Source: a virus. From it: a stretch of 64,000 nt of DNA. The translations under genes and the position numbers were made by a program. The stretch is from IMG/VR virus record IMGVR_UViG_3300032235_000792. The stretch is one strand, 5' to 3'. The notes under the pieces were generated by a model. The model saw nothing but the letters and a program-made list of their open reading frames with translations. It had not been told where the DNA came from and searched no databases. Shown here piece after piece: positions 5,102 through 62,828 of the stretch (position 1 is the first letter of the stretch; each line of letters starts with the position of its first letter).

Positions 5102-5110
5102 TGGTATAAT
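5102..5110 (+). promoter_or_regulatory. Extended -10 promoter TGGTATAAT
   Basis: Intergenic. The 15-mer TGGTATAATTAAGTA is identical at 39684. Confidence 0.75.
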
Positions 5111-10970: not shown

Positions 10971-13634
10971 ATGTCAGTAAATCAAATTAAAGGCAAGTTT
11001 GTTAAATTATCTAACAATGAGGCCTTATCGTCAAAAAATCAAGCTGGTGATGGAAACGTAGACATCCTGAAGGTTGATACCTCTGATGAAGTTATACTAT
11101 TAAAGCTTCCTATAGTAGATGATGGAGTTAGCCCTTCGTCTAACGTATCTACTGAGGCTTATGTTGATCAAGAGATCGCATCAGTAAATGATAGAATTCA
11201 AGATCACGTTGACGGTGTTGCTGAAAAGCACAGCGCAGCAGATATTGAAGTATCTCCATCTGGTGATCTATCTTCTACAAACATTCAATCAGCGCTAGAA
11301 GAAATTCAGAACGATGCCTCTCAAGGGATCTCTGACGCTGCTACGGCGCAATCTGCAATAAACAGCCACATTGCTGATTCTACAGATGCACACGATGCTT
11401 CTGCTATATCAGTATCACCTACTGGTAACCTTGGATCTACAGACGTTCAAGCTGCTCTACAAGAGTTGCAAGGTGACGTTGACGATATCAACGATACATT
11501 ATCTAATTTAAGTGCAGAAGCTTCGGCTATCACAGTTGTTCCAGCTGGTAATATTGGATCTACTAATGTTCAAGCTGCTATTGAAGAATTAGATTCTGAA
11601 AAAGTAGCTAAAGCTGGCGACACAATGACTGGCTTTCTTACATTGCACGCTGATCCAACGGCAGACATGCATGCCTCTACAAAGAAGTACGTTGATGATG
11701 AAATCGGTGCTCTTAGCTTTGAAGCTTCTGCCATCTCCGTTTCTCCTACTGGAAACCTCGGATCTACTGATGTTCAAGCGGCTTTACAAGAGTTACAAGG
11801 CGATGTAGACGGAATAAACACAACTATTGGAAATCTTAGTTTTGAAGCAGATGCAATAGCTTTTACCCCTGCTGGCGATATTGGTTCTACCGATGTTCAA
11901 GCTGCTATTGAAGAATTAGATTCTGAAAAAGTAGCTAAAGCTGGCGATGAAATGACTGGCTTTCTTACTTTACATGCAGATCCAACATCTGATTATCATG
12001 CTGCAACTAAGAAATACGTTGATGCTGTTGCTGAAGGACTTCATGTTCATAGCCCAGCTAGATTACTTGCAGACTTCGATCTAGACGGCTCATACAATAA
12101 CGGTGTTGACGGTGTTGGTGCTTACTTAGACGTAAGTGGATCTCCTATTGCAGGAATCGATGGCGTTTCTTCTTTTAATGTCGGAGACAGAATCATAGTA
12201 GCATTACAAAATGGTAATGTGCTTGACCCTGAAAACGGTGTTTATTTTATTGCTGATTCGGCAGACATAAACGGCAACGGCGATATTATAAAATTAACAA
12301 GAACATCTGATTTTAATACTCCTACTGAAATGGCTGGCGGAGACTTTATCTTTGTTCAAGATGGTTCTCAATATGCTGATAGTGGTTGGGTAATGACAGA
12401 AACTGTTACATCAGTTGGTGTTACACCTGTTAAGTTTGTTCAGTTTTCTGGTGCAGGAACATACCTTCCAGGTGATGCATTGTCTTTAACTGGTGGTGAG
12501 TTTGATGTACTTTTTGATAATTTTACAATCGGCATTAACGGGGTTAACCAATTAGAGGTTAAAGACGATTCTATAAATGAATTTAAATTACAAGATAATT
12601 CAGTAACTGGTGCCAAATTAAACATGGATGTAGCTGGTGACGGCTTAAGCCAAGGTATGATGGGTGAGTTACAAGTTAATGTAGATTCGATGTCCCTTGA
12701 AATTTCAATGGACGCACTCAGAATCAAAGACCAGGGTGTTACTGAGTTTAAACTAGGTGATTTATCTGTATCTACTTTTAAATTGCAAGATGACTCTGTA
12801 ACTGCTGCCAAATTAAACATGGATGTAGCTGGTGACGGTTTAATCCAAGGTATGATGGGTGAACTACAGGTCAACACTGACAACATGTCCCTTGAAATTT
12901 CAATGGACACACTTAGAATCAAAGATCAAGGTGTTACTGAATTTAAACTAGGTGATTTATCTGTTTCTACTTTTAAACTACAAGATGACTCTGTTACTGC
13001 AGCTAAGATCAACATGGATGTAGCTGGTGACGGTTTGATCCAAGGTATGATGGGTGAGTTACAAGTTAATGTAGACTCAATGTCTATAGAAATTTCGATG
13101 GACACACTTAGAATCAAAGACCAGGGTGTTACTGAGTTTAAACTAGGTGATTTATCTGTATCTACTTTTAAATTGCAAGATGACTCTGTTACTGCAGCTA
13201 AGATCAACATGGATGTAGCTGGTGACGGTTTAATCCAAGGTATGATGGGTGAGTTACAAGTTAATGTAGGTTACGGGCTTGAAATACTATCTGATGCTGT
13301 TAAAATTAAGCCTGAATTCACAGGTACTGCAGACATATCTATAAGCAGCAATGGTTTAAGCATAGTAAATAGATTCAACAAAGAAGTGTATCAAATATCT
13401 TCAACTTTAGGGGCTGGTGCATATTTTGATCTTGCTTTTGAAATTGAACCTAACTCTATGCATGCATTTGTTGATCGTCTAGCAATTCATGAAGGCATAG
13501 ATTACGACTATACTATCAGTACTGTAGGTAGCGTTAGCCGAGTTACTTTCATAAATGCCTTAGTCACCCCAGGTCAACAGCAATTAACTGCTGGTGATAC
13601 TGTTTTCTTCAGTTATCAGAAAAAAGCAAATTAA
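10971..13634 (+). CDS. Repeat-rich tail/head fibre protein
   Basis: STDVQAALQEL repeats, GDTMTGFLTLHADP...ATKKYVD fibre motifs, 65-aa tandem repeats. Confidence 0.7.
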   Translation: MSVNQIKGKFVKLSNNEALSSKNQAGDGNVDILKVDTSDEVILLKLPIVDDGVSPSSNVSTEAYVDQEIASVNDRIQDHVDGVAEKHSAADIEVSPSGDLSSTNIQSALEEIQNDASQGISDAATAQSAINSHIADSTDAHDASAISVSPTGNLGSTDVQAALQELQGDVDDINDTLSNLSAEASAITVVPAGNIGSTNVQAAIEELDSEKVAKAGDTMTGFLTLHADPTADMHASTKKYVDDEIGALSFEASAISVSPTGNLGSTDVQAALQELQGDVDGINTTIGNLSFEADAIAFTPAGDIGSTDVQAAIEELDSEKVAKAGDEMTGFLTLHADPTSDYHAATKKYVDAVAEGLHVHSPARLLADFDLDGSYNNGVDGVGAYLDVSGSPIAGIDGVSSFNVGDRIIVALQNGNVLDPENGVYFIADSADINGNGDIIKLTRTSDFNTPTEMAGGDFIFVQDGSQYADSGWVMTETVTSVGVTPVKFVQFSGAGTYLPGDALSLTGGEFDVLFDNFTIGINGVNQLEVKDDSINEFKLQDNSVTGAKLNMDVAGDGLSQGMMGELQVNVDSMSLEISMDALRIKDQGVTEFKLGDLSVSTFKLQDDSVTAAKLNMDVAGDGLIQGMMGELQVNTDNMSLEISMDTLRIKDQGVTEFKLGDLSVSTFKLQDDSVTAAKINMDVAGDGLIQGMMGELQVNVDSMSIEISMDTLRIKDQGVTEFKLGDLSVSTFKLQDDSVTAAKINMDVAGDGLIQGMMGELQVNVGYGLEILSDAVKIKPEFTGTADISISSNGLSIVNRFNKEVYQISSTLGAGAYFDLAFEIEPNSMHAFVDRLAIHEGIDYDYTISTVGSVSRVTFINALVTPGQQQLTAGDTVFFSYQKKAN
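11397..12024 (+). repeat. 327-bp (109 aa) tandem duplication within fibre gene
   Basis: GAAGAATTAGATTCTGAAAAAGTAGCTAAAGCTGGCGA at 11583 and 11910 (offset 327). Confidence 0.9.
12570..13270 (+). repeat. 195-bp (65 aa) coding tandem repeat, about 3.5 copies
   Basis: AACATGGATGTAGCTGGTGACGG at 12621, 12816, 13011 and 13206. Confidence 0.95.
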
Positions 13635-28348: not shown

Positions 28349-29215
28349 TTAGTTTATGGTTTTTATTGATTTAAGAAAAATCGTAGCAGTGTCTCTGTGT
28401 CCGTTGTTTTTAAGTACATCGTTCCAGTCCATATCTGTATCGCCGGTAACAGCATAGTGAGTTATAGCTTTAGCCTTATTCAATTTACTAAGTCCTTTCA
28501 AGCCTGCTTCATCAGAGTCAAATGCACACACTATCTTAATGCCTGCATCTTTTAGTTCCAGCAATTTATCGATCTGGTGCTCAGTAGTTCCACAACCAGA
28601 GGTAGCGACTGCCTTCCATGGATTCTTAAGAACTCCACCGTAAAGTTTATCTAAAGATTGCTGAATAGATAGGGCATTAAATGCACCCTCACAAACAATT
28701 AAGCCTTTTATGTTAGTAACAAAAGGATTCTGGTTCCAGTTATAAAAAACAAGACCGAGACGTGTACCGGGTAGAGTAAGGACTTTAACAGTATCGCCAT
28801 CTCGCTCCCAAGGTTCTATTAGTCTAGTTTGTGAACCAACAAATACAGAGTCAAAATAATATGGAAAAACTATGCCTTCGCGCTCAGTATCATAGTACAT
28901 ATCACCTTTTGGATCAAGTCCTCGTGACCTAATGTATTCGACTCCTTTAATAGCCCTTGGATCAGATAGCGGTAAGAAATGAGAAGGCCAGTCCAAACGA
29001 GAAACCTCATTTGGTGTGGCTTTCGTCATATCAAAATCACCTTTAAGAAACTCGTTCAGATCCACGCCAGCAGTGTGGCAGTACTCTCTTAGAGAGTAAC
29101 CTCGTTGACATCTACCACTACACCAGCACCATATAGCTCCAGTATCTTCGTCTGAATGCCAGTAGATAGTATCATTAGGTCTTTTACAAATCAAGCATTT
29201 CTTGGTATTCACCAT
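28349..29215 (-). CDS. DNA primase (Zn finger + TOPRIM)
   Basis: CLIC...C.C...C Zn-binding region. [10 protein letters not shown] and [14 protein letters not shown] motifs. DWND. Confidence 0.85.
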
Positions 29216-44112: not shown

Positions 44113-47100
44113 ATGAACTATCTATGGATAGACGTAGAAACTACTGGTTTAAATGAAAAAAAGAATGACATTATTCAGTTAGCCTGCATACCAATAATTA
44201 ATGGTGTTGTTAAGGAATCATTTAACGAATTTTGTCAACCATTTAATTTTGACACTATTGAACCAGAAGCACTTAAGGTGCATGGTTTGACATTAGAAAT
44301 GATAAGAACGTTTCAATCACCTGATTTGATGTTTGAAAAGTTTATTAATTATATTAAGTCTTTTAACGTAAAATTTACTATTGCTGGTTTTAATGTTGGA
44401 TTTGATAAGCGATTTTTATCTGCTTCTTTTTCTAAAATAAACAAAAATCAAGACTTCTCAAAGCTATTTAATATAGATATTCACTGTGTTTATAAGAGAG
44501 CATCAGATGTAAAAAGCAAAATAGCATCTAAGTCTCTTAAGCTAGAAGCACTATCTAATCTTTACGGCATCGAGATAAACGCACACGATGCATTATCAGA
44601 TATATCTGCAACAATAGAGGTTGACAAGATTATATCTGGGCTAATGGGAGAAGACACCACAGTCTATGTTCCACAACTAAGTGCTGAAGATGTTAAGATA
44701 TGCGTGGGTTTCCCTGAAATGGCACAACTTCATGTTCACTCTCAATATAATATGATAGATGGTGTTCTTAAGCCAGAAGAATGGTATGCTTGGGCAGCAG
44801 CAAATGGCGTCCCAGGTATATCAATCGTTGATCAAGGCTCTGGTATTTCTTTGTTTAATTCTGTAAGAAATAAAGAAAAAACCGTAGCAGTGTCTGGTTT
44901 AGGTATTAATTTTGCATACGATGAAGATGTTGATATGCACAACATTTTTTCTCTTAATGCTTGGGCAATATCTGATGAAGGATACAAGAATTTAGTCAGT
45001 CTTGCTTCAATTGGCTACGATAATTCAAAAGAAATAAATGGAATTGTAACACCTGTACTTACTTTGTCTACTATAATTAGTAAAAGTCAAGGATTAGAAT
45101 TTGGTTCTGCTGATTTAAAAGGGCCAATTGGCCAAGCTATAGTTGCTGGAGATAGAGATCTGGCTGAGTCAAGATTCTTAGATCTTAAGAGTAAGCTGAA
45201 TATTATTCTAGAGTTTAACCCTGTAGATATAATTAAGGTTTATGACGGTAAGGTTGGCTTCAGGAGTGCTCCTAAGAATAAACTAATTACTGAAGGAAAC
45301 CTTAGCAAGGCATATAATAAATTTCTGTTCGAGATGTATTCTGAGCATGGTTGCCGAGCTATTCCAGTAACTGGTGCGTGCTTTATAGATCCAGATGATA
45401 AGCTTGTTCAAGATTGTTTATCTAAGAACGCTCATAAAGACCAAGCTTACTACTACGAATCATATCATATAAAGAAAGCAAATCAGGTATTTAAAGAGCT
45501 TAAGGTGCATCTTGGCAACGATCTTACTGAAGACATATTCAATCAATGGGTACTTAGAACGCTAGACATTGTAGATAAAGCCAAGTCTATAAATGCATCT
45601 TTTGATTACCATTTGCCCGCTATATTTGTGCCAGATCATATTAGGAAGAAGACAGATAACTACGATATGCAGACTTATTATGTAATGATGGAACGCATAC
45701 ATAAACATGGCAGGTGGATAAATGATCCTATATATGTAGAGAGATTTAAAAAAGAGCTAGACGTCATAATGAAGAATGAAGTCATGAACTTCATACCGTA
45801 CTTTTTGGTTTATGAGGACGTTTCTCAGTTTTCTAGAGATGCTGGGTTCCTACAGTCTATCGGTCGTGGTTCTGCTGGCGGATGCTTGATATCTTATTAT
45901 CTCCAGATCATTCATGTTGACCCAGTTAAGAGTGACCTTCCTTTTGAGCGATTTCTGTCACATGCCCGTATTCGTGCAGGATCTTGGCCAGATATTGATA
46001 TGGATATTTCTAGAACAGCTAGACCTCACGTAATGAAGTATCTTAAAGACAAGTACGGACTAGGTTTTGCTCAGATTTCTACATTCTCTACAATGAAAAC
46101 AAAGAACGCTATCAAAGATGCTATGATGGCTATTTATGGTCGAAATCGTAAGGATTTTGAGATCGAGGCTGTTTGTAAGACTATCCCTGATTCACCTCAG
46201 GGTGTTGAAGAGAAAGATTTTTTATATGGATACACTGATAAAGAAGGTGATGATCATGTTGGTCACTATGATGAGAATGAAATGCTTCGTAACTTCTTCT
46301 CGTCGTATCCTGATGTTAAAGATCTGGTAGATAAACTTCTTGGTGTAGTTCGTGGCTGGTCACGTCACGCCTCTGCTTTTGTAATATCTACACTAAATCT
46401 TCAAGACGGTCGCGTACCTACAATGCGAATGTATGACGGAGGTATGAATGACTATATTAACGTCACTCAATATAATGCAAAGATGGTTGAGAAAAGTAAT
46501 CTTGTTAAGGCTGATATCTTAGGTCTTAACACTATGGCTATGGTTACAGATTGCGTTAATCTACTTAAAGACAGGGTCAACTATTTAGAGACTGACGATA
46601 AGGGTGTTGCCCTCATATATCGTCTACCTGAATTAGAAAGTGTTTATATAGATTTTTATAATAAGAAAACAGACTCTTCTTTTCAATTTAATACAAATAC
46701 TGTTAAGAACGCTGCACCTCAGTTTATGCCAACAGAGAGATCGCATTTAAGCATCATGACAGCTCTGCTAAGACCTGGAGCGATGGATGCTCAGATCGAA
46801 GAGGGCGTGTCTGCTACTCAGTGGTACATGGATGTGAGAATGGGCAAGCGAGATCCTATCTACATTCACGAAGATCTAAGACCTATCTTAGAAGAAACAT
46901 ATGGGATAATGGTTTATCAAGAGCAGGTGATGAAAGTTCTAGTTGATATCTGTGGATATACACTAGAAGAAACCGATCGTATTCGAGATGCTATTTCTAA
47001 GAAAAAACAAGACGTAATGATGGCCGCGTTTGATCGTATTCGTGAAGCTACTAAGAAAAAAGGGTGGAACAAGCACCAGTCTGATAATCTATGTAATACT

Positions 47101-52735: not shown

Positions 52736-52747
52736 TCTTGGTATAAT
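52717..52747 (+). promoter_or_regulatory. AATCAATAACTTA box + extended -10 TGGTATAAT (packaging operon)
   Basis: The box matches the IHF consensus WATCAANNNNTTR, 12 nt upstream of TATAAT. Confidence 0.7.
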
Positions 52748-52765: not shown

Positions 52766-53209
52766 ATGGTTAATTATATTGATCATCACCAATGGTTAGT
52801 TAATAACAATATGTTAACTGATCAAATTAAGGATAACATCGCTATGGGCGGGTATTGCTTAGTTGAGGGTGTTAAAGATGTTGGCACGTCAATAGATTTC
52901 AATGATAAGTTGGTGCACTACAAGATAATAGTACCAGATAATCTTTATAATAACTTAATGTTGCTTAAAAAGTTTAATAGTGGTGAAAGTTTAGGGTTTT
53001 TTGAATCTATTAGATTAAAAAAATTTTTAAAGATAAAGAAAGAGAACGACGAAAGTGGACTAGGTTATAACCTAGAAAATATTGGTAATAAGTTTGTTAA
53101 AACTTACCTAAACAAAGAATGGTCCGTTAAAGTAGACCTAATTAAAGAAAGTAGTAATGAAGCAAAAAATTTTTGGCTACATAGCGATACAGATAAATCA
53201 CTTGACTGA
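52766..53209 (+). CDS. Hypothetical protein
   Basis: Own promoter and SD AGGAG. Confidence 0.65.
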   Translation: MVNYIDHHQWLVNNNMLTDQIKDNIAMGGYCLVEGVKDVGTSIDFNDKLVHYKIIVPDNLYNNLMLLKKFNSGESLGFFESIRLKKFLKIKKENDESGLGYNLENIGNKFVKTYLNKEWSVKVDLIKESSNEAKNFWLHSDTDKSLD

Positions 53210-53342
53210 TGACGAAGATTTAAGACAAGATCTTTGGGTGCTCTTCTTGGAAGGTAAGGCCACTTTTTCTTTTAAAGATTATATAGATACTAAATATGAT
53301 AAGTGTTTGGAGTTAGAGGATGGCACTAAAGAGAGATTTTAA
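53157..53342 (+). CDS. Small protein resembling sigma-70 region 2 of ECF-type factors
   Basis: DEDLRQDLWVLFLE resembles the AEDLxQExF region 2.2 motif. Overlaps both neighbours. Confidence 0.4.
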   Translation: MKQKIFGYIAIQINHLTDDEDLRQDLWVLFLEGKATFSFKDYIDTKYDKCLELEDGTKERF

Positions 53343-53931
53343 TGATGAAGAAAAGATTGGACTAACTCAAAGAGAAATCGAGTTGGGTGAAAAGTATCTT
53401 CGCAAGCATAAAACTGCTGGTGCAATAGGCGATGTACAGTCTCTTAAACTATACGAGATGTTTTTAATAGGTAGCTCTCTTCACGAAATACAACAACAGT
53501 TCCCAGAATATGAAATAGGTCAAATAGTTCTAACAGCTGCATTAAAAAAATGGGGCATGGATAGAGATAAGATGCAAGGCACTCTTAGAGATCGAGTACG
53601 GGCCAAAGTTGTTAAATCTGTTATTGAACAAGTAGACTTTCTAACATCAATGCTTAGTGTTGCAAATGTCGAGCATGTAGATGAGATGCGGAAGTACATA
53701 ATTGACCCTAACAATCCAAAACCAAACCTAAGAATAAAGTCTATAAAAGACTATAAAGAAGTTGCTGAAGTTTTAGGCAAGATAGTTCAGGGTGCAACTC
53801 CTGGTGCTAAAAGCAACAGCATATCGCCTATGTTCGATGCACTTGCTCCTAACACCGGAAAGAGTGTTGAGAAGAAAAGAGACGATGATGACATAGATCT
53901 TGATTCTTTGCTAGACAAGGGTGAAGAATAA
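53320..53931 (+). CDS. Probable terminase small subunit
   Basis: HTH-like segment, immediately upstream of the large terminase. Confidence 0.5.
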   Translation: MALKRDFNDEEKIGLTQREIELGEKYLRKHKTAGAIGDVQSLKLYEMFLIGSSLHEIQQQFPEYEIGQIVLTAALKKWGMDRDKMQGTLRDRVRAKVVKSVIEQVDFLTSMLSVANVEHVDEMRKYIIDPNNPKPNLRIKSIKDYKEVAEVLGKIVQGATPGAKSNSISPMFDALAPNTGKSVEKKRDDDDIDLDSLLDKGEE

Positions 53932-53936
53932 CGTAC

Positions 53937-55871
53937 ATGAAAAACGACAAGGCTAAATCAAATTTCGATAAGCTATCTCTTAAGCAAAGAAAAACATTGT
54001 TTTTCAAGAAGTGCGAAACAAGAGAAGAACTGTCTAAATTTATTCAAGTATTCTTCGGACTTCACTTACCGGATCAGGTTGTTTCCAGGTATGCTGATGT
54101 TAGTCCATTAGACGTTATATGGGAAGTGTACGATATTTGTGTAAATAAGCGTAACCCTAACAATATAGAAGAAATACTATACGTCGCAGGTCGCGGATCT
54201 GGTAAGACTCTAGGTATGGCAATTGCTGAGTTGCTAGTGATGCTTCATGACGGAAGAGACATATGTCACGTTGGTGCTGTTTTAGCTCAGGCTAAGCGAT
54301 GTTACGAGTATCAGACCAAGTTCATGCTATCCGGAAAAATACGCCCGATAATAGAGGATAAGAACTTAGCTCAAGAAGATAGGATCCTGCAAAAATTAAA
54401 CATGGAAAAATCTACTTTTTTAGTAGATAATCAGACTGTTACCATAGAAGTACTACCGTGTACACTCAAAGCACTTAACGGTCCTCACGTCCCTCTTGTG
54501 GTTACAGATGAGATCGATACCGTTTCTGGCGAAGGATTAAAGGCATTCAAAGAAATTAGCGGTATGCTAGACTCTAAGGGTGACAAGAAAGCTTTAAGAG
54601 TTGGTATTTCGACTAGAAAATCACGTTACGGCTTGATGAACAGAATGATGGAAGATGCTGAGTCAGCAGGAAGACACGTTCGTAGATGGACTGCTTGGGA
54701 GTTTACAGAGCGCTGCCCAGATGAAAGATCTGGCACAACGCCAACTGAATCATACCATATTCAAGATAATATGGAGGTTATTGACGAAGCAACCTTTAAA
54801 ATGAAAGATCCTAAGAAGCAAAAAGAATACACACAGCACACGATGCCAGGCGAAAAATGCCTAGCCTGTCCTGCTGCTGCTATATGTCTTGGCGACGCGA
54901 AAAAACAAGCGTCAAAATCATGGATGCTGAAGCCAGTTGGTGAATTGATTAAGAAAGTAAGGTCAGAAGGTACTGATTGGGCTTTAGCTCAGCTAATGAA
55001 TCTAAAACCGTCTGTTGAAGGGATTATATACAAAGAATTTGATGAAAAAATACATGTAAAAGACTGGAACTCAATGTGGAGAACCTTAACCGGAACAGAC
55101 TTTCCAGGTGAATGTTCACATGATATATTTGTAAAAAAATGCCATGCCATGCACCTACCTTGCTATGCTGGTGTTGACTGGGGATGGTCTAATCCAAATA
55201 CAGTCGTTTATTTTTTCATAGATAAAAGAGATAATGTTTACGTCGTGAGATCTGATGGGATGACCTACGTCTCTCAGCCAGAGTGGATCCACTATATAAA
55301 GACAAAATACAATGCAATGTATCGCTGCCAGCTCTACTTTCCAGATATCGCGGATCAAGGTGCTGTAACAGAAATGAAGAAAGCTGGACTACCTGTTTCA
55401 GCTGATAATGATAAGTCAATTAATACTGGCATACAAGTAATCAAAAGACTGCTTAGAGTTCCTGGTACTAGCGACACCAAGATGCACGTCGCTAAAGAGA
55501 CCAATGAACCTCTTATAATTGAATTTTTAACTTATCACTTTAAGACTTCAGCTGACGGAACAATTACTGAAATGCCAGATACTGAATACGATCACTGGCT
55601 AGATGCTCTAAGATACCCATTGACAATGCTTTTAGGCAAAGGAACAATGGTCATGGGGCAAATGATAGATGTAGATAAGGCTAATACAATAGATTCGCAA
55701 GGCAACTACTACAAGACACCTTCACCGGAAGAATTTTGTGTAGTAAATAACTTAAAGATAAACACTGACGAGCCAGATTTAACTAAACTTGGAAAAATAG
55801 GTCGCTTAAACGACATAGACGATGAAGAAGACCAAAACGGCGGCAGTGGCGGGTTTTTATGGGGTTTTTAG
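53937..55871 (+). CDS. terL: Terminase large subunit
   Basis: AGRGSGKT Walker A, VVTDEID Walker B, GVDWGWSNP and DHWLDALRY nuclease motifs. Confidence 0.93.
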   Translation: MKNDKAKSNFDKLSLKQRKTLFFKKCETREELSKFIQVFFGLHLPDQVVSRYADVSPLDVIWEVYDICVNKRNPNNIEEILYVAGRGSGKTLGMAIAELLVMLHDGRDICHVGAVLAQAKRCYEYQTKFMLSGKIRPIIEDKNLAQEDRILQKLNMEKSTFLVDNQTVTIEVLPCTLKALNGPHVPLVVTDEIDTVSGEGLKAFKEISGMLDSKGDKKALRVGISTRKSRYGLMNRMMEDAESAGRHVRRWTAWEFTERCPDERSGTTPTESYHIQDNMEVIDEATFKMKDPKKQKEYTQHTMPGEKCLACPAAAICLGDAKKQASKSWMLKPVGELIKKVRSEGTDWALAQLMNLKPSVEGIIYKEFDEKIHVKDWNSMWRTLTGTDFPGECSHDIFVKKCHAMHLPCYAGVDWGWSNPNTVVYFFIDKRDNVYVVRSDGMTYVSQPEWIHYIKTKYNAMYRCQLYFPDIADQGAVTEMKKAGLPVSADNDKSINTGIQVIKRLLRVPGTSDTKMHVAKETNEPLIIEFLTYHFKTSADGTITEMPDTEYDHWLDALRYPLTMLLGKGTMVMGQMIDVDKANTIDSQGNYYKTPSPEEFCVVNNLKINTDEPDLTKLGKIGRLNDIDDEEDQNGGSGGFLWGF

Positions 55872-55877
55872 TATAAT
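55871..55877 (+). promoter_or_regulatory. GTATAAT -10 for portal, overlapping terL stop
   Basis: TAGTATAAT followed by SD GGAGGAG. Confidence 0.65.
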
Positions 55878-55895
55878 GTATCTTACGGAGGAGAT

Positions 55896-57791
55896 ATGGC
55901 TTTTTGGGACACATGGATAAGAGACGGAGTTAAGCGAGAACTAGAGGCTTTGAATAAAGGAGACCCGGATGCTGTTCCGGAAAAGCCTGACACTATGCCA
56001 GAGGATGACGACCCTGAGATTGGTCGTAAGGCGATAGTAGCGGATCCTTTTTTTACACAGCAAAGTCAACAGACAATATTTAGATATCGCTTGTCTAGAC
56101 TATCAAATAAGACGTTAAAAGACGTCTCTATGAGAGACTGGCTTGTTTCAGCTATTCTTCAGAACAGAGTAGACACACTTGTTCGCTTTTCTAGACCGCA
56201 AGTCCGAAAGTTTGATATGGGATATCGGATTGTGAAAAAGAATAAAGAATCTGAGCACACCGAAGAAGAAAATAAAGAGATTGAGAATCTTCAGGAGTTT
56301 ATATACAACTGCGGAAGAATTCAAAATACACCAGACGAAGATCGTATGCTGTTTGGTGATTTTATGAAAATGATAGTTAGAGACGCGCTGACTTTTGGCA
56401 ACGTAACGGTTGAAAAAGTTAGAACTAGAAGAGGTGCTTTACATAGATTTAGGCCTGTTCCTGCTGAGAGTGTTTACCATATAAATCCAAATGCTCCGAA
56501 GGCTCAAGTAGAAGATCATATTAAGTCTGTCAAGAATACTTACACACCTAAGTCTGATAATGATCCTAAAAAGAACTATCAAGTAAATGATTTACCGTTA
56601 GATTATTTTAAGTACGTTCAAGTGTCTTACGATAACAGACCTTTGGCTGTCTTCGGTGATGAAGATCTTATATTTAAGTTGTTTAATCCGCAGAATTTTG
56701 CAGATGGTAATGGATATTGCTATTCGCCAGTTGAAATGGCAATTATAAATATTACTAATCACATGAATACGGAGCACTATAATTCTAACTTTTTTACACA
56801 TGGTCAGGCTGCTAAAGGTGTACTTCACCTTAAAGGTACGGTAACTCAGTCACAGATGACTGCGTTTAGGAGACAATTCTACAGTCTTATTAACGGTGCA
56901 CAAAATGCATGGAGAACTCCTATTGTTTCTGGTTTAGAAGATGTTCAATGGGTGCCAATGGCAGGTGGCTCAAAAGACATGGAGTATCTTAACTACAACA
57001 TGCATCTTATGCGCTCAGTATGTACACAGTTTCAGATTGACCCGATGGAGTTAGGTTTGGATCTTCTAGTTACTGGTGGTCGTGCAGCAAACCTACAAGG
57101 ACACCAGACAAAGATTGAATTCTCCAGAGAGAAAGGCTTGTATCCTTTACTTATGTTCGTTGAAGACTTCGTGAACTCGAGCATAATCCCAGCCATCGAC
57201 CCAGAGTACTCAAAGAAGTATAAGTTTCAATTTGAAGGATATACAGATGAGACTCCTCAGACAGAAATTGCATTATTGCAAGCTGAGATGAGCGTAAACA
57301 AGACAATGAATGATTTGTTAAGTTCTGCAAGAAAAGCTCACATCAAACACCCAGTTGCTGATTTGCCAATGAATGCCGCTTTTTGGGGCCTAGTTGAAAA
57401 GAATATGACTCGTGGAGAAATACGAGAACTATTCTTTGGAGACAAAGGGGCTTCAAAAAAGAAAGAACTACAATACATACCGGCTGATCCAGCGTTCTTA
57501 TCATGGCAGCAGATGCTATTGACTATTGAAAATACTAAAAAGCAAGAACAACAACAGCAACAAGCTATGGCGCAACAACAGCAAGCAATGGCACAGCAAG
57601 CTCAAGTAGAGCAAGCTCAGCATAGTCGAGATCAAGAAAAACATGACGCAGAAATGAGTCAAGTAAGAGGTCAAGCCGCGTATAATGCTGTTAAGCATGG
57701 ACAAAACTTGCATGATGCCGCTGAGCAAGCTGGTGCAACTAAACCAACAAACATCGGTGGAAAAAATATCAAGAACCCGCTAAACTTATAA
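55896..57791 (+). CDS. Portal protein
   Basis: IVRDALTFG, YSPVEMA, NFFTHG..AKGVL, NAWRTPI, KDMEY, FQIDPMELG. Follows the terminase. Confidence 0.92.
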   Translation: MAFWDTWIRDGVKRELEALNKGDPDAVPEKPDTMPEDDDPEIGRKAIVADPFFTQQSQQTIFRYRLSRLSNKTLKDVSMRDWLVSAILQNRVDTLVRFSRPQVRKFDMGYRIVKKNKESEHTEEENKEIENLQEFIYNCGRIQNTPDEDRMLFGDFMKMIVRDALTFGNVTVEKVRTRRGALHRFRPVPAESVYHINPNAPKAQVEDHIKSVKNTYTPKSDNDPKKNYQVNDLPLDYFKYVQVSYDNRPLAVFGDEDLIFKLFNPQNFADGNGYCYSPVEMAIINITNHMNTEHYNSNFFTHGQAAKGVLHLKGTVTQSQMTAFRRQFYSLINGAQNAWRTPIVSGLEDVQWVPMAGGSKDMEYLNYNMHLMRSVCTQFQIDPMELGLDLLVTGGRAANLQGHQTKIEFSREKGLYPLLMFVEDFVNSSIIPAIDPEYSKKYKFQFEGYTDETPQTEIALLQAEMSVNKTMNDLLSSARKAHIKHPVADLPMNAAFWGLVEKNMTRGEIRELFFGDKGASKKKELQYIPADPAFLSWQQMLLTIENTKKQEQQQQQAMAQQQQAMAQQAQVEQAQHSRDQEKHDAEMSQVRGQAAYNAVKHGQNLHDAAEQAGATKPTNIGGKNIKNPLNL

Positions 57792-57818
57792 GATAAGTTA
57801 GCGCTCATCCCCTCCAAG

Positions 57819-57843
57819 AGGCTCCTTAACCGGAGCCTTTTTT
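57819..57843 (+). terminator. Intrinsic terminator after portal
   Basis: AGGCTCC-TTAACC-GGAGCCT followed by TTTTT. Confidence 0.88.
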
Positions 57844-57849
57844 ATATCA

Positions 57850-57856
57850 GTATAAT
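57850..57856 (+). promoter_or_regulatory. GTATAAT -10 directly after portal terminator
   Basis: Positioned to restart transcription for the kinase cluster. Confidence 0.65.
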
Positions 57857-57898
57857 CATTTTGTGATAATTAATGATTACGAAATATTTTATAAATTA

Positions 57899-58027
57899 AT
57901 GTTTACTATTGCTAAATTAGATATAGATAATCATATAGTAAATCATATTCATGACGATGATGGTCCATATTTTGCATTAACAAAAGCTGAAAATTACGTC
58001 TTAAAATTTAAAAGAGGGATATACTAA
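57899..58027 (+). CDS. 42-aa hypothetical protein (not in ORF track)
   Basis: MFTIAKLDIDNHIVNHIHDDDGPYF.... The stop overlaps the next ATG (TAATG). Confidence 0.4.
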   Translation: MFTIAKLDIDNHIVNHIHDDDGPYFALTKAENYVLKFKRGIY

Positions 58028-58869
58028 TGACTTGGATTATTTTAGAAGGCCTAGATCGTTCTGGTAAATCTACTGTTGCTGAAATGTACAAGAGTGAGGG
58101 ATTTGAGATAATTCACATGAATGCCCCAAATAAGATGTATTTTAAGCAAGGCTATTCGGGTCCCTCGTATCTCGAAGAAATGATAGACCTATATTCAACC
58201 TATGCTGGCAAAGACGTACTGTTTGATAGATCTGCATACGGCGAACTAATATGGCCAGAAATCTATAATAGACAAGCTCTGTTGACATCAGAAGACTTCG
58301 AGTATCTCCAACAATTAGAGTACAATAACGACACAGTAAAAATATTAATGTACGATGAAAATAAAGATGCACATTGGCAGCGATGTGTAGACAATAAAGA
58401 ACCTCTTACACGACAACAGTTTGTACACGCAACAAGGTTATATGAAGAAATGGCTAAAACGCATAATTTCGAGAAAAAACAACTTAAAGACTTTACGAGA
58501 AACAACTCGGCAACTAAGCAAATTGATGCAGGACAACCAGCAGAAAAATCCAATGATAGAGGTGTTAGCATGTCTGGGATTCTACGATCAAGCGATGGAG
58601 ACGGAAATGAAGATTCCGAACTTCGCGGTGTGGCACAGTCTGTACTTGACAAGAAACTTGAGAGGGCAAATGCCATCAGAGATCTTTTGTCAGCGCCGAT
58701 CGTTAAGAAAAAAGGAAGCGCTTTTCAGCAGCTTGAAAAAGATATTAAGCTCTTCCTAGAACAGCAGCTAGAAAATATATTTAATGAGCCAAAGCAAGAC
58801 GATTTCACTAATGAAGAGGTCAAAATACTAAAAATATACGCACAGCGCATAAAGGAAAAGTTAGGTTAA
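58027..58869 (+). CDS. Thymidylate/dNMP kinase-like protein with C-terminal extension
   Basis: IILEGLDRSGKST, LFDRSAYGELIW. Confidence 0.85.
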   Translation: MTWIILEGLDRSGKSTVAEMYKSEGFEIIHMNAPNKMYFKQGYSGPSYLEEMIDLYSTYAGKDVLFDRSAYGELIWPEIYNRQALLTSEDFEYLQQLEYNNDTVKILMYDENKDAHWQRCVDNKEPLTRQQFVHATRLYEEMAKTHNFEKKQLKDFTRNNSATKQIDAGQPAEKSNDRGVSMSGILRSSDGDGNEDSELRGVAQSVLDKKLERANAIRDLLSAPIVKKKGSAFQQLEKDIKLFLEQQLENIFNEPKQDDFTNEEVKILKIYAQRIKEKLG

Positions 58870-58873
58870 TACT

Positions 58874-59218
58874 ATGATAACGTTTAAGGAACGCAAGACG
58901 GTTTATTTCGATTGCGATGATACACTTTTAGAATGGAAAACATGTAATGAGCATGATGTAGGCGCAATAACAATTGAAAATAACGGACACACGTTTTATA
59001 AGAAAGTAATATCGGCAAATGTAGAAGCTCTTATAGATCATTCACTGGCTGGTCATCTAGTTGTAGTTTGGTCAGCTGGTGGATCAACTTGGGCAGAAAC
59101 AATAATTAAAGCTCTGCGTATTGAACCATACGTAGACGTTATCCTAAATAAGCCAGATTTCTTTTACGATGATAAGGACCCGTCACATTGGCTACCAGAA
59201 AGACAATTTAAGGCATAA
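58874..59218 (+). CDS. HAD-superfamily phosphatase (cap-less)
   Basis: YFDCDDTL, VWSAGG, KPDFFYDD. Confidence 0.85.
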   Translation: MITFKERKTVYFDCDDTLLEWKTCNEHDVGAITIENNGHTFYKKVISANVEALIDHSLAGHLVVVWSAGGSTWAETIIKALRIEPYVDVILNKPDFFYDDKDPSHWLPERQFKA

Positions 59219-59671
59219 ATGAAAGTATCTGATTATCTTAATCTAATAAGACAACTTCAATCAAATCATAAAGATTTGATATTATGCGGATCAGCCGCAT
59301 TAATACTTGCAGAGGTACTACCTGATCGCAATATTGGCGATATAGATTTTGTTACTAATAATAGGGCTATGATTAGTGCACTAAATCTTACTCGAGATGC
59401 TTATGCTGATGAAGTTGCTAATGGTGGATATCTGTCGTACAGTGTAACTAAAATTAGAGAAGGTTTTGGAACATACAAGCTAAATGCACTTATCTTTAAT
59501 CCGGAAGCCTGCATAGATACAGAGATTATTAAATTGTCCGGCGGAGATATAGTGTGTCAACGTATATCTGACGTAATACAATGGAAGCAGAAGTATAACA
59601 GAAAAAAAGATATTATAGACCTAGACAATATGTCTTTAAACATGCTTGAGAAAGCAGTATTTGACAAATAA
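59219..59671 (+). CDS. Nucleotidyltransferase-fold protein
   Basis: LCGSAAL...GDIDF...K...R.KD..D. Confidence 0.75.
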   Translation: MKVSDYLNLIRQLQSNHKDLILCGSAALILAEVLPDRNIGDIDFVTNNRAMISALNLTRDAYADEVANGGYLSYSVTKIREGFGTYKLNALIFNPEACIDTEIIKLSGGDIVCQRISDVIQWKQKYNRKKDIIDLDNMSLNMLEKAVFDK

Positions 59672-59681
59672 TGGAGGAAAG

Positions 59682-60260
59682 ATGAAAGGAATTAAGCTGG
59701 CAAAACAAGATTCTGTAAAAAACAGGATTAAAGAACTGGAAGTTGCACTGCAAAACACGCAGATGGCACTACAAGTATCACAGATGATGATAAAGCATTT
59801 AACAGATCAATTCAAGGCGACTCAAAATGACGTTGCTAACACGATGGGTATGCTAAATGATTTTCAATATAGAACTTTAGCTATGCTTGAAGTAGGTAAC
59901 TTTAGTAAAGATGCAATTGATTCACAAGCTGAAGTCCTTAAGCTAAAAGACTTTAACGATGCTTCTATTAAAGAAGATATCGAGAAAGGTTATCTAGATG
60001 ATGAGGCTGGCGTTGTGGCTGAAGATAGTGTTATTGTCATTACTTCGCGCACTCCTGGTCTAGAAGAAGATCAAGGTATTTTTCGTTCCAAGTTTCCAAT
60101 GGCTGAGTGCCTAACTCCTGCACTAAGAAATAAGCTTCTAGGGTTAAAGTTAAATGATAAAGTTAGTGTAGAGCTCGGTGGGACAACCCATGAGGTCTCT
60201 ATTCTTTCTATTAAAAAACTTAAAGTAGCAAATGAAAGTGTGACTGAGAAAGAAGGTTAG
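59682..60260 (+). CDS. Coiled coil + GreA/FKBP-like C-terminal domain protein
   Basis: SD GGAGG. C-terminal TPALRNKLLGLKLNDKVSVELGGTTHEVSILSI resembles the GreA/Rnk C-terminal domain. Confidence 0.55.
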   Translation: MKGIKLAKQDSVKNRIKELEVALQNTQMALQVSQMMIKHLTDQFKATQNDVANTMGMLNDFQYRTLAMLEVGNFSKDAIDSQAEVLKLKDFNDASIKEDIEKGYLDDEAGVVAEDSVIVITSRTPGLEEDQGIFRSKFPMAECLTPALRNKLLGLKLNDKVSVELGGTTHEVSILSIKKLKVANESVTEKEG

Positions 60261-60261
60261 G

Positions 60262-60813
60262 ATGACGCTGGTCGTCAACATGCTTGGCGGCAGTGGTATA
60301 GGTAAATCCACTATTGCCGCCGGTTTATACTATAATATGAAGTTAAATCACATGAACGTTGAATTAGTTAGAGAGTATGTTAAAGTTCTTGCTTGGCAAG
60401 GTGCAAGCATAGGAAGATTTGATCAGGTTAATATTTTTGGAGAGCAGTGTAAGTTAGAGCATACTCTTTATGGTAAGGTTGACTACATAGTTACAGATTC
60501 GCCTATAATCCTAGCTCCCATATACGAGTTTTTTTATCATGGTGATTCAATGATGGAAGAAGCTGCTTTAAAGTTCTTAAAGAAATCTAAGGAGATAAAC
60601 GTTAGGCATCTTAACATAGTACTAGAAAGAAATAAGTCCTATGATCCTAGAGGAAGATTTCAAACGGAAGAAGAAGCTAAAACTGTAGATGGTATGACGC
60701 TAGACTTCTTGAAGAAGTATAATATAGATTATTGCGTTGTTTCTGGTTCTGAAGAATCGCGAGTTAAACAGATCATGGAACTTATACAGAATGAACAAGA
60801 AGAAAGATCGTAG
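60262..60813 (+). CDS. NadR/AAA_28-like P-loop kinase
   Basis: VNMLGGSGIGKST, ELVREYVK, IVTDSPI, YDPRGRFQTEEEA. Confidence 0.85.
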   Translation: MTLVVNMLGGSGIGKSTIAAGLYYNMKLNHMNVELVREYVKVLAWQGASIGRFDQVNIFGEQCKLEHTLYGKVDYIVTDSPIILAPIYEFFYHGDSMMEEAALKFLKKSKEINVRHLNIVLERNKSYDPRGRFQTEEEAKTVDGMTLDFLKKYNIDYCVVSGSEESRVKQIMELIQNEQEERS

Positions 60814-61153
60814 CATGGATAGTAGGTGCCCCAGAAAACTGGAGCACCTACCATGCGAATTTTGCCCACTAGCAGTTTTGAGATTAAAGGCACTCAGAAA
60901 TAGTGACAAAGAACTCTCTGAAGACGAGGAATCCACTCTTCCAGGATGCTCATGGGCTATAAATCATCAGATGTCAAATTACTGCTTCTTTAACTATGTT
61001 GCTGATTATTTGCATGATGTACCTTCCGATAAAGAGATAGCTCATATGAATAACGTCTCTGTCGAAACTATAAAAGATGCCACTAAAGATGCTATAGAAG
61101 AGATAAAATGTCTAAAAGTCATAAAAGACCTAGACGACGATGCTGCATTCTAG
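60791..61153 (+). CDS. Cys-rich protein with sigma-70 region 4-like HTH
   Basis: C...CEFC...C...C followed by SDKEIAHMNNVSVETIKDATKDAIEEIK. Confidence 0.6.
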   Translation: MNKKKDRSMDSRCPRKLEHLPCEFCPLAVLRLKALRNSDKELSEDEESTLPGCSWAINHQMSNYCFFNYVADYLHDVPSDKEIAHMNNVSVETIKDATKDAIEEIKCLKVIKDLDDDAAF

Positions 61154-61244: not shown

Positions 61245-61251
61245 GTATAAT
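61245..61251 (+). promoter_or_regulatory. GTATAAT -10 for prohead protease
   Basis: Intergenic, followed by SD AGGA. Confidence 0.7.
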
Positions 61252-61268: not shown

Positions 61269-62828
61269 ATGGCTAAAGATAAAAAATTGTGGATAGATAT
61301 GTGTGCCGGTTCTGAGCTTAAAGATACTCAGGGCGAAACCCTAAGTGTCGAAGGCGCTGACATATCTGATCTTGAAAATGGAAACGGTAGGCTCAACGAT
61401 AACCACGGTAAGGGCTTCTTTAATTCCCTTGGTAGAGTTACCGAAGCTAAAAAAATTTTTAAATCAGAAGATTGCGATAACGAAAGACATAAGTACTTTT
61501 GGGAAAAAATAAAGGCACCCTTCATATATGCTAAAGGATACCTGTATAGTGATGAGGATCATCCCAATGCCAAAGCTGCGGCTGCAATTTTAAGAAATAT
61601 TCATAGAGAAGATGCACCTCTCGCGATGAAGGCCTCTGTTGAAGGTGGTGTTTTAGCTAGAGGAATATCTGACTCTTCTAAACTAGCAAGAACAAAAATT
61701 CATTCTGTTGCTCTGACCTTCACTCCTGCCAATAACGCTACTTTAGTTGAACCACTCAACGTAGATAAGTCTACCTATGATTGGGATAGGGATATGCAGT
61801 TAATCAAGTCAGTAATGCACCTAGCTGAGACCAATGTTCCTTCTTTTAGACACATACAAAGACACGCATCTGCTAATGCTATATATGACAATATAAAGAA
61901 AATACAAGAACTAGCTAAAGGTCTTGGTATTGATATAGAAGTTAGGGCCCCTTCCCCAGAAACAATAATGGAAAACGCTGTTTTTTCTAAAGTTGAATCT
62001 AATATACTAAAAATAAATGAATTAGTTAAACAAATTAAGGTTAATCAGCTAGGACTTATATCTACTCCAAGCATGCTAAATCAGTCGCCTAACACACCTA
62101 ACTCGTTTGCTCACCCTGAAATGGTAACAAGATGGCATGGAAAGGGTGTTATCCCAGAAGGGCATCCAGATCGTCAACAAATGGTAAGTTATATTAATAA
62201 CCTTAGAAATACTCCGCACCCGCAAGGTCTAAACGCCAATATCGACGAAGCAAGAAGACTATACGATGCTCATATATCTGATCTTAATAAGGCAGAAGGT
62301 GCACGAGCTGCAAAAGGTGTAGCTTTAGCTATTGGATTAGCACATGCGGCACATTACGTAAATAAACCGCCTGTAGAAGTTAAAGAGCATGCTGAGCATG
62401 TTCATAGAGAATTAGAATCACAGAAAAATAAAAGAGTCAAAGAGCATAATTCTAGAATTTCTAGTGATGAGATGAAATTATCACCTAAAGAATACGGTTT
62501 TGATGAAAAAAAACCAGCTGTTTCAACAACTAGCATTAAAAATAAATTAAAAAAAGCTTTTGAAAAAGAGTTAGATAAAGCACTTACCGCTGGATATGGC
62601 GGTGCAGGTATGCCAACTGATATGGTTGGTGGTGCGGTTATTCAGGCTCAAAGTTTAGAGACAAAGCGTAAAAAAAAAGTAAAAAAAAGTCAAGCTGATC
62701 TCAGCAAATCTCTCCAATATATTACATGTGATAATTGTGGCCATGAGCAAGTCCACATGCCTCATCAAGTAAAGTGCAGAGAATGCAAGCACAATTTCAG
62801 TTTATACAGACTAAATAACTTAAAGTAA
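61269..62828 (+). CDS. Prohead protease with long C-terminal extension and Zn ribbon
   Basis: DTQGE, LNDNH, ASVEG, VALTFTPANNAT (HK97/herpes-fold protease motifs). C-terminal CDNC...CREC. Confidence 0.85.
   Translation: MAKDKKLWIDMCAGSELKDTQGETLSVEGADISDLENGNGRLNDNHGKGFFNSLGRVTEAKKIFKSEDCDNERHKYFWEKIKAPFIYAKGYLYSDEDHPNAKAAAAILRNIHREDAPLAMKASVEGGVLARGISDSSKLARTKIHSVALTFTPANNATLVEPLNVDKSTYDWDRDMQLIKSVMHLAETNVPSFRHIQRHASANAIYDNIKKIQELAKGLGIDIEVRAPSPETIMENAVFSKVESNILKINELVKQIKVNQLGLISTPSMLNQSPNTPNSFAHPEMVTRWHGKGVIPEGHPDRQQMVSYINNLRNTPHPQGLNANIDEARRLYDAHISDLNKAEGARAAKGVALAIGLAHAAHYVNKPPVEVKEHAEHVHRELESQKNKRVKEHNSRISSDEMKLSPKEYGFDEKKPAVSTTSIKNKLKKAFEKELDKALTAGYGGAGMPTDMVGGAVIQAQSLETKRKKKVKKSQADLSKSLQYITCDNCGHEQVHMPHQVKCRECKHNFSLYRLNNLK

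Follow-up and report, generated by a model that had tools for sequence, protein, structure and literature searches.

Two probably unrelated sigma-factor fragments in the head-gene block of an uncultured tailed phage and a candidate sigma70 divided within domain 4

The window analysed here is a stretch of 64,000 nucleotides (nt) from the IMG/VR virus record IMGVR_UViG_3300032235_000792, whose source is an uncultured tailed phage of roughly 165 kb. Two small open reading frames (ORFs) in its head-morphogenesis block, one of 61 amino acids (aa) at 53157–53342 (+) and one of 120 aa at 60791–61153 (+), resemble parts of sigma factors. On balance, we take the two to be unrelated sigma fragments: the 120-aa protein would complete a truncated sigma70-like protein that was read in related phages, and the 61-aa ORF would be the remnant of a mini-sigma. 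An earlier note on this DNA had paired the two ORFs with each other as a split sigma factor, and an ORF check of the window confirmed both at these positions together with the strings quoted from them. The proposal survives in part, in that a two-piece sigma probably exists in the phage, and the 61-aa and 120-aa ORFs are unlikely to be its halves. Homology, synteny, distribution, the conserved truncation and selection are observed in the sequences compared, every binding step and the mechanism as a whole are what we infer from them, and overall the phage group has a real and unusual set of sigma parts.

Gene contexts of relatives were drawn from IMG/VR loci, and three genomes served as whole-genome stand-ins: G002, a 165,836-bp record rated 100% complete with which the window is collinear at ~65–75% DNA identity, and G008 (166.6 kb) and G010 (176.5 kb), both with terminal repeats. 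G009, G010 and G011 are each 100% complete, and G001 is an identical 23.8-kb IMG/VR fragment rated 14% complete. When the region and the 120-aa protein were compared with 50,697 phage records by megablast and tblastn, no match was found; the closest match of the large terminase was that of Myxococcus phage Mx1, at 26% identity.

The earlier note had stated that no full-length sigma gene lies in the window, and this was upheld by tblastn with the sigmas of relatives and by a maximum-sensitivity hmmsearch of the ORFs. The relatives do encode truncated sigma70-like proteins and region-2-only mini-sigmas outside the window-equivalent region, a finding that tells against the pair put forward in that note. 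G002 has two Sigma70_r2 proteins, both outside this region. The first, of 229 aa, matches regions 1.2, 2 and 3 (expectation value (E) 1.4e-6, 2.1e-23 and 1.6e-10, respectively) and terminates ...REEKIMRIKFGISD at the end of region 4.1, with nothing region-4.2-like downstream of its gene. The same stop point was found in five clade members (TAG or TAA), and phage sigmas at 40–47% identity continue into a canonical region 4.2. In all, the truncated sigma was read in more than 100 database homologues besides G002 and G008; the best 120 database homologues are nearly all of 227–233 aa with regions 1.2, 2 and 3, and none of them matches PF04545. The 4.1 stub that remains is conserved, with R216 invariant and L213, F225, G226 and D229 present at 90% or more. 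Judging from these sequences, the sigma70-like protein of the phages in the window's subclade appears always to stop right after region 4.1. The second G002 sigma, of 159 aa, has region 2 only and a proline-rich low-complexity tail. Region-2-only mini-sigmas of 131–159 aa were located at 129.1–129.6 kb in G002 (L021:1282–1761, −) and at 158.2–158.6 kb and 20.4–20.6 kb in G008, and none was found in G010.

The 120-aa protein carries cysteines at positions 13, 22, 25, 53 and 65, followed by SDKEIAHMNNVSVETIK... and a helix-turn-helix (HTH). Its Cys-bearing N-terminal half (60827–60985, +) was delimited using a 40-sequence alignment and the G008–G012 orthologues, and the HTH (residues ~78–108; 61022–61114, +) corresponds to about positions 24–49 of the 50 in Sigma70_r4. 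We found 148 database homologues at 61–100% identity and 17 viral loci. Four cysteines (C13, C25, C53 and C65) never vary in the alignment; C22, nearly invariant, gives way to D, N, E or T in some relatives, and a P-S-D-K-E-I-A-H-M-N-N-x-S stretch is almost fixed. Pfam Sigma70_r4 (PF04545) was matched by 33 of the 40 members (E ≤0.01, best 3.9e-7), which bears out the sigma kinship that had been claimed for this protein; the G002 orthologue gave E 5.2e-4, and the window copy aligned at E 0.074 (13 bits) with residues 81–106 on profile positions 24–49. The protein thus aligns to the region-4.2 half of the profile only, and Pfam scans of the window copy and the family did not find region 2. In G002 the Pfam scan gave no other region-4-like match besides the 120-aa orthologue, and a PF08281 scan gave no further sigma-4 in G002, G008 or G010. 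In the Atlas its closest clusters consist of small viral Sigma70_r4 proteins (scores 0.84–0.89, a lead only), the PHROGs matches are weak and of unknown function, and a PDB sequence search with the family profile gave nothing significant, FliA region 4 appearing at E 0.46. In the AF2 model, which is of moderate quality (pLDDT 70), a long helix (residues 54–71) precedes the HTH. Two known arrangements of cysteines were rejected: the ZAS motif H-x3-C-x2-C, as H19 varies and several orthologues have another residue in place of C22, and WhiB-type Cys spacing, which does not fit the alignment.

The gene for the 120-aa protein was found in all seven relatives of the phage group that were checked for it, among them G002, G008, G009, G010, G011 and G012, and is a core gene of the group; the full-length-sigma phages G003 to G007 lack it. 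The G008–G012 orthologues retain the four cysteines and the HTH and add an acidic C-terminal tail. At loci L127–L130 (G009 to G012, which lack the truncated sigma) this tail ends ...D-Y-K-I-Y-R, an ending that is not in the window and G002 copies. The start of the gene in the window is overlapped by 23 nt by a kinase-like gene at 60262–60813 (+).

The complex of the G002 truncated sigma and the 120-aa protein was predicted with ipSAE values of 0.68, 0.69 and 0.68, and the best of three controls scored 0.00; the mark that was applied is reached by 58 of 80 solved complexes and by 2 of 110 mismatched pairs. The runs had at least 68% of their contacts in common, and the partner had a pLDDT of at least 75. 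The predicted interface lies between sigma residues 205–229, which are exactly the 4.1 stub, and residues 43–111 of the 120-aa protein, whose side includes invariant hydrophobic residues and the HTH; the stub is held by helix 53–77 together with the HTH. The profiles are complementary as well, the stub covering the first part of Pfam region 4 and the 120-aa protein positions 24–49. When the Cys protein was compared directly with the truncated sigma, hhalign gave 30% with an alignment onto the region-3 HTH, because most truncated-sigma rows lack region 4.2. The prediction supports binding of the truncated sigma to the 120-aa protein and does not show it. We propose that the 4.1 stub would pack into the HTH of the 120-aa protein, domain 4 being rebuilt from two polypeptides, and that the 120-aa protein would provide the part of the holoenzyme that faces the beta flap and the upstream DNA. 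As relatives that lack the truncated sigma also have the 120-aa protein, this protein is likely to have started as a stand-alone sigma-4-type factor, on which an acquired sigma would later have leaned.

Several results weigh against this pairing. The truncated sigma was read in relatives only, and the window's 120-aa copy falls below the Pfam cut-off of 24.1 bits, its membership being carried by the family. Its AF2 model had no significant structural match (none at E ≤0.001 by Foldseek against PDB, and all Z below 5 in the VIA wide search). The complex score may come from intact sigma-4 domains that the model has learned, both chains being halves of a known fold. Furthermore, G009, G010, G011 and G012 have the 120-aa protein, and the truncated sigma was not found in them. 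A maximum-sensitivity hmmsearch of G010 revealed no sigma70-like protein, and another protein with a 4.1-like stub was not found there; the best candidate, a 65-aa frame at E 0.079, was judged spurious. The truncated sigma and the 120-aa gene occur together in G002 and G008, and strict co-occurrence fails. The presence of the 120-aa protein in relatives without the truncated sigma means that pairing cannot be its sole or original role: the protein predates the truncated sigma and is more widely distributed, and the pairing, if real, is a derived use. The last point concerns the promoters. Escherichia coli sigma70 without region 4.2 can act unaided at promoters of the −10-only class, and as the late promoters here appear to be of this kind, the truncated sigma may need no partner.

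These promoters are recognizable by the sequence GTATAAT, which occurs in the window in 18 copies on the + strand and in one on the − strand. The + strand sites listed start at 5104, 17874, 25282, 31516, 33692, 33772, 34252, 37461, 39686, 41292, 48561, 52741, 55871, 57850, 61245 and 62856, and most copies stand 13–50 nt before gene starts, often with TG or A just 5′. Three of them are conserved in G002, G008 and G010: 52741–52747 (+), 18 nt before the 147-aa gene that precedes the 61-aa ORF; 55871–55877 (+), at the terminase stop codon and 18 nt before the portal start; and 61245–61251 (+), 17 nt before the protease/scaffold gene and just 3′ of the Cys/sigma-4 gene. The flanks of the conserved sites differ among the four genomes and show no common −35, in agreement with the −10-only promoters that the earlier note had described. 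GTATAAT therefore looks like a group-wide −10-only late promoter, in some cases with an extended TG, and the site at 52741 is likely the promoter for the unit to which the 61-aa ORF belongs. The sequence is retained in G010, a genome without the truncated sigma. A scan for generic sigma-70 promoters showed no enrichment, with 41 sites against 38.9 expected.

This leads to a serious rival, which we regard as possible and less than probable, namely that the 120-aa protein is a free-standing regulator of the sigma-4/GerE type with a Cys-held N-terminal domain, one that could for instance activate late genes or repress early genes and that acts outside any sigma factor, with the truncated sigma working alone. 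The protein does occur in complete relatives that lack the truncated sigma, small stand-alone Sigma70_r4 proteins are common in phages (as the Atlas clusters indicate), and the late promoters are conserved GTATAAT sites without a conserved −35. Also in its favour, an invariant 13-mer, TGACACTGCTACG, was found as exact copies, 3–11 of them, in each of the six genomes that carry the 120-aa protein (G002 and G008–G012) and is absent from G003; this co-occurrence is, however, confounded by phylogeny. In the window there are one-mismatch copies only, at 11333–11345 (+), 28382–28394 (−) and 44883–44895 (−). In early cassettes the 13-mer comes after a terminator hairpin, and because its distance to a downstream CGATATA-type promoter-like motif varies (~27–52 nt), it is unlikely to be a fixed −35 element. 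What a free-standing regulator leaves without evident use is the conserved 4.1 stub of the truncated sigma, which would have no HTH partner, and the complex prediction passes with its interface exactly on this stub. On balance, the pairing of the truncated sigma with the 120-aa protein is the favoured reading.

The 61-aa ORF has a different history. It contains DEDLRQDLWVLFLE, its codons 1–17 overlap the end of the upstream gene, and its last 7 codons are the ribosome-binding/start region of the downstream gene in another frame. Searching 1.84 billion representatives with its profile returned 69 relatives, which comprise short forms of 49–72 aa and about 50 proteins of 121–147 aa. The long relatives match the 61-aa profile at their N-terminus, and hhalign related the short to the long family with 99.4% (E 6.5e-22), so that the sigma kinship claimed for this ORF held as well, through an ECF (extracytoplasmic function)-like mini-sigma. 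The C-terminus of the long family is a sigma-4-type HTH (PDB sigma-H 3mzy, E 4e-6), with PF08281 in 9 and PF04545 in 4 of 49 members. The AF2 model of the long form is confident (pLDDT 92.6), and its C-terminal domain superposed on sigma-4 structures with Z 8–8.8 and a root-mean-square deviation (rmsd) of ~2–3 Å over ~60 residues (Z 8.8 and 1.7 Å over 56 residues in the best case). In a whole-chain Foldseek search of PDB the best matches of the long form were all ECF sigmas (probability 0.77–0.96, E 0.05–0.3). The top BFVD match was a 50-aa short-form homologue from an uncultured phage (50% identity, rmsd 1.0 Å), followed by mostly phage ECF-type sigmas and some uncharacterised proteins at E of at least 0.02. 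PHROGs gave nothing for the 61-aa ORF, phrog_351 was matched by only 3 of the 49 long relatives, and the hhalign value for the long form and the truncated sigma was 7%.

The positions of the genes agree with this kinship. We retrieved ~80 related contigs for the mini-sigma slot, and at all loci among the matches listed the long gene is flanked by the orthologues of the 147-aa gene and the 203-aa gene, before terminase and portal. In the window the left edge of this conserved slot is the upstream neighbour (147 aa, no family; 52766–53209, +) and the right edge is the downstream neighbour (203 aa, no family; 53320–53931, +), directly 5′ of the large terminase gene. The shared slot and the family match identify the 61-aa ORF as the positional orthologue of the long gene with the sigma-4 half deleted: the sigma-4 domain is present in the long relatives, and the 61-aa ORF ends before it. 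Collectively, sequence comparison and structural models point to a previously unannotated family of very small (121–147 aa) ECF-like sigmas encoded immediately ahead of the terminase genes in many large uncultured phages.

The stub is conserved; the earlier note had held that its proposal would fall without this. The motif LT.DED..Q.LW...LEG is invariant in several close relatives, and in the non-overlapping codons 18–42 the pN is 0.10–0.34 against a pS of 0.5–1.0 (with synonymous sites saturated). By this codon analysis the 61-aa stub is under purifying selection, and it is kept in several lineages. In G002 no homologue was found anywhere, even at E up to 10, and a 17-nt spacer occupies the slot. 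The gene is dispensable, since this complete relative has lost it. We suggest that the ORF is the surviving region-2.1/2.2-like N-terminal helix pair, with a D-L-x-Q-E/D-L-W motif, of an ECF-like mini-sigma. In position and pattern this motif corresponds to sigma region 2.2, with which a sigma factor holds on to the beta-prime clamp helices, and because purifying selection persists, the remnant would probably still bind polymerase on its own. The term region 2.2-like rests on the motif, the domain order, the whole-chain fold hits at E of at least 0.02 and an Atlas lead, in which 8 of 30 matches of the 61-aa protein were viral Sigma70_r2 clusters (score 0.92). Sitting less well with it, Sigma70_r2 was matched neither by the 61-aa ORF itself nor by any of the 9 short-form members (E up to 10) or of the 49 long-form members (E up to 0.05) that were scanned, PDB sequence searches with the short- and long-form profiles gave no region-2 sigma match, and the region 2.3/2.4 signature is absent from the family.

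Selection also bears on whether the 61-aa ORF does anything at all. We think it unlikely that the ORF has no function and is what is left of a mini-sigma gene that is decaying and about to be lost. Such decay would fit the graded sizes in the relatives, from 121–147 aa through 61–75 aa to absence in G002, as well as a C-terminal tail that coincides with the start region of the neighbour in another frame. The motif of the short form is nevertheless invariant despite saturated synonymous sites, and short forms of 49–72 aa span many separate 50%-identity clusters, one of them in UniProt/BFVD, which argues for a stub that is maintained.

The pair originally put forward, in which the region-2.2-like 61-aa module would contact beta-prime and the 120-aa protein would serve as region 4 of a two-subunit sigma of the SigO-RsoA type, is very unlikely. 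In its favour, the 61-aa module has a sigma-4 domain attached to it in relatives and, having lost its own, could rely on the 120-aa protein instead; most of the lineages that were looked at carry both genes, and the Atlas feature matches of the 61-aa protein include the viral Sigma70_r2 clusters. Co-occurrence across relatives is not obligate, however: G002 keeps the 120-aa gene and has no trace of the 61-aa gene. The Cys protein is not a split-off piece of the mini-sigma either, as G008 to G012 carry it alongside the unsplit form of 121–147 aa, and the sigma-4 domains of the long form and the Cys protein are not specifically related (hhalign probability 0.45%). In addition, region 2.3/2.4, the part that opens the −10 element, is missing from the module, and the two genes belong to different units with 7.4 kb between them, whereas sigO and rsoA share an operon.

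A broader possibility, which we hold to be quite unlikely, is that sigma activity in these phages is assembled from exchangeable parts. The Cys/sigma-4 protein would then be a shared region 4 that acts in trans for several phage proteins with region 2, namely the truncated sigma70, the 61-aa module and the mini-sigmas that have region 2 only. Its four-Cys domain would serve as a switch that responds to metal or redox state, and the protein may also read the 13-mer.

The surrounding genes are those of a tailed-phage head-morphogenesis block, in the order Mre11-like phosphoesterase, 147-aa gene, 61-aa ORF, 203-aa gene, large terminase, portal, two P-loop kinase-like genes, 120-aa ORF and protease/scaffold gene. 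The large terminase (53937–55871) is uninterrupted in the window, whereas many relatives match it in 2–3 pieces with ~1.1–2.1 kb between the pieces (L068, L100–L105, L109, L111, L117, L119 and L125), which suggests inteins or introns with homing endonucleases at recurring sites. The P-loop nucleotide-kinase-like genes within the block lie at 58027–58869 (+) and at the position overlapping the Cys/sigma-4 gene given above; the matches of the kinase-like genes were AAA_28 (E 1.3e-10) and phrog_2107 thymidylate kinase (E 1.7e-17). A 204-aa coiled-coil protein at 59646–60260 (+) has a weak match to the GreA/GreB C-terminal domain (E 0.043) and, if this is real, could be a polymerase secondary-channel factor. 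The 519-aa protein at 61269–62828 (+) has a prohead-protease-like N-terminus (phrog_1028, E 2.9e-7) and a zinc-ribbon-like CxxC...CxxC at its C-terminal end.

Among known systems, the closest in design are two-polypeptide sigmas, Bacillus subtilis SigO-RsoA (PMC8103513, PMC7826278) and Sig7-Sig8 of Tn916 (bioRxiv 10.64898/2026.10.01.756105). In both, region 4 and region 2 are on separate polypeptides, and the small partner, of ~60–80 aa, has a region-2-like core-binding motif. In contrast, the split here is likely within domain 4, at the 4.1/4.2 boundary of a primary-like sigma70 that keeps regions 1.2 to 3, and the region-4.2 piece is fused to a four-Cys domain and is older than the truncated sigma. 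Moreover, the two genes are ~85 kb apart in G002 rather than in one operon, and the RsoA-like 61-aa ORF would be a dispensable truncation product of a one-piece mini-sigma. Other phages divide the functions between a region-2-type protein and a separate region-4 replacement, as in T4 (gp55 and gp33) and SPO1 (gp33 and gp34) (10.64898/2026.10.01.756105). With these the present case would share phage-encoded late factors and −10-only promoters; no sequence relation to the window proteins was found for either pair, and the promoter here is GTATAAT, as opposed to TATAAATA for T4 late genes. T4 gp33 is not known to have a region-4 HTH.

The 121–147-aa relatives of the 61-aa ORF resemble ECF (group 4) sigmas in their two-domain order and C-terminal sigma-4 fold, and differ from them in being much shorter and in having neither a Sigma70_r2 match nor the 2.3/2.4 signature, while the window's own copy is entirely without sigma-4. 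The 120-aa protein, for its part, is like stand-alone phage Sigma70_r4 and GerE/LuxR-type proteins in being small and essentially a region-4-type HTH. It differs from these proteins in its additional N-terminal half with four invariant cysteines, in matching the 4.2 half of the profile only, and in being predicted to dock the stub of a truncated sigma.

Split sigmas are known in a handful of cases, which are SigO-RsoA, Tn916 Sig7-Sig8, T4 gp55/gp33 and SPO1 gp33/gp34. If the pairing of the truncated sigma with the 120-aa protein is true, the cut here would be a different one, inside domain 4 of a primary-type sigma, with the missing half on a pre-existing Cys-rich protein. It would also suggest a route to a divided sigma, in which a resident sigma-4-type factor makes region 4.2 of an acquired sigma dispensable. 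Alongside this, the relatives document the stepwise loss of a mini-sigma gene, from the full form to an N-terminal stub and then to nothing.

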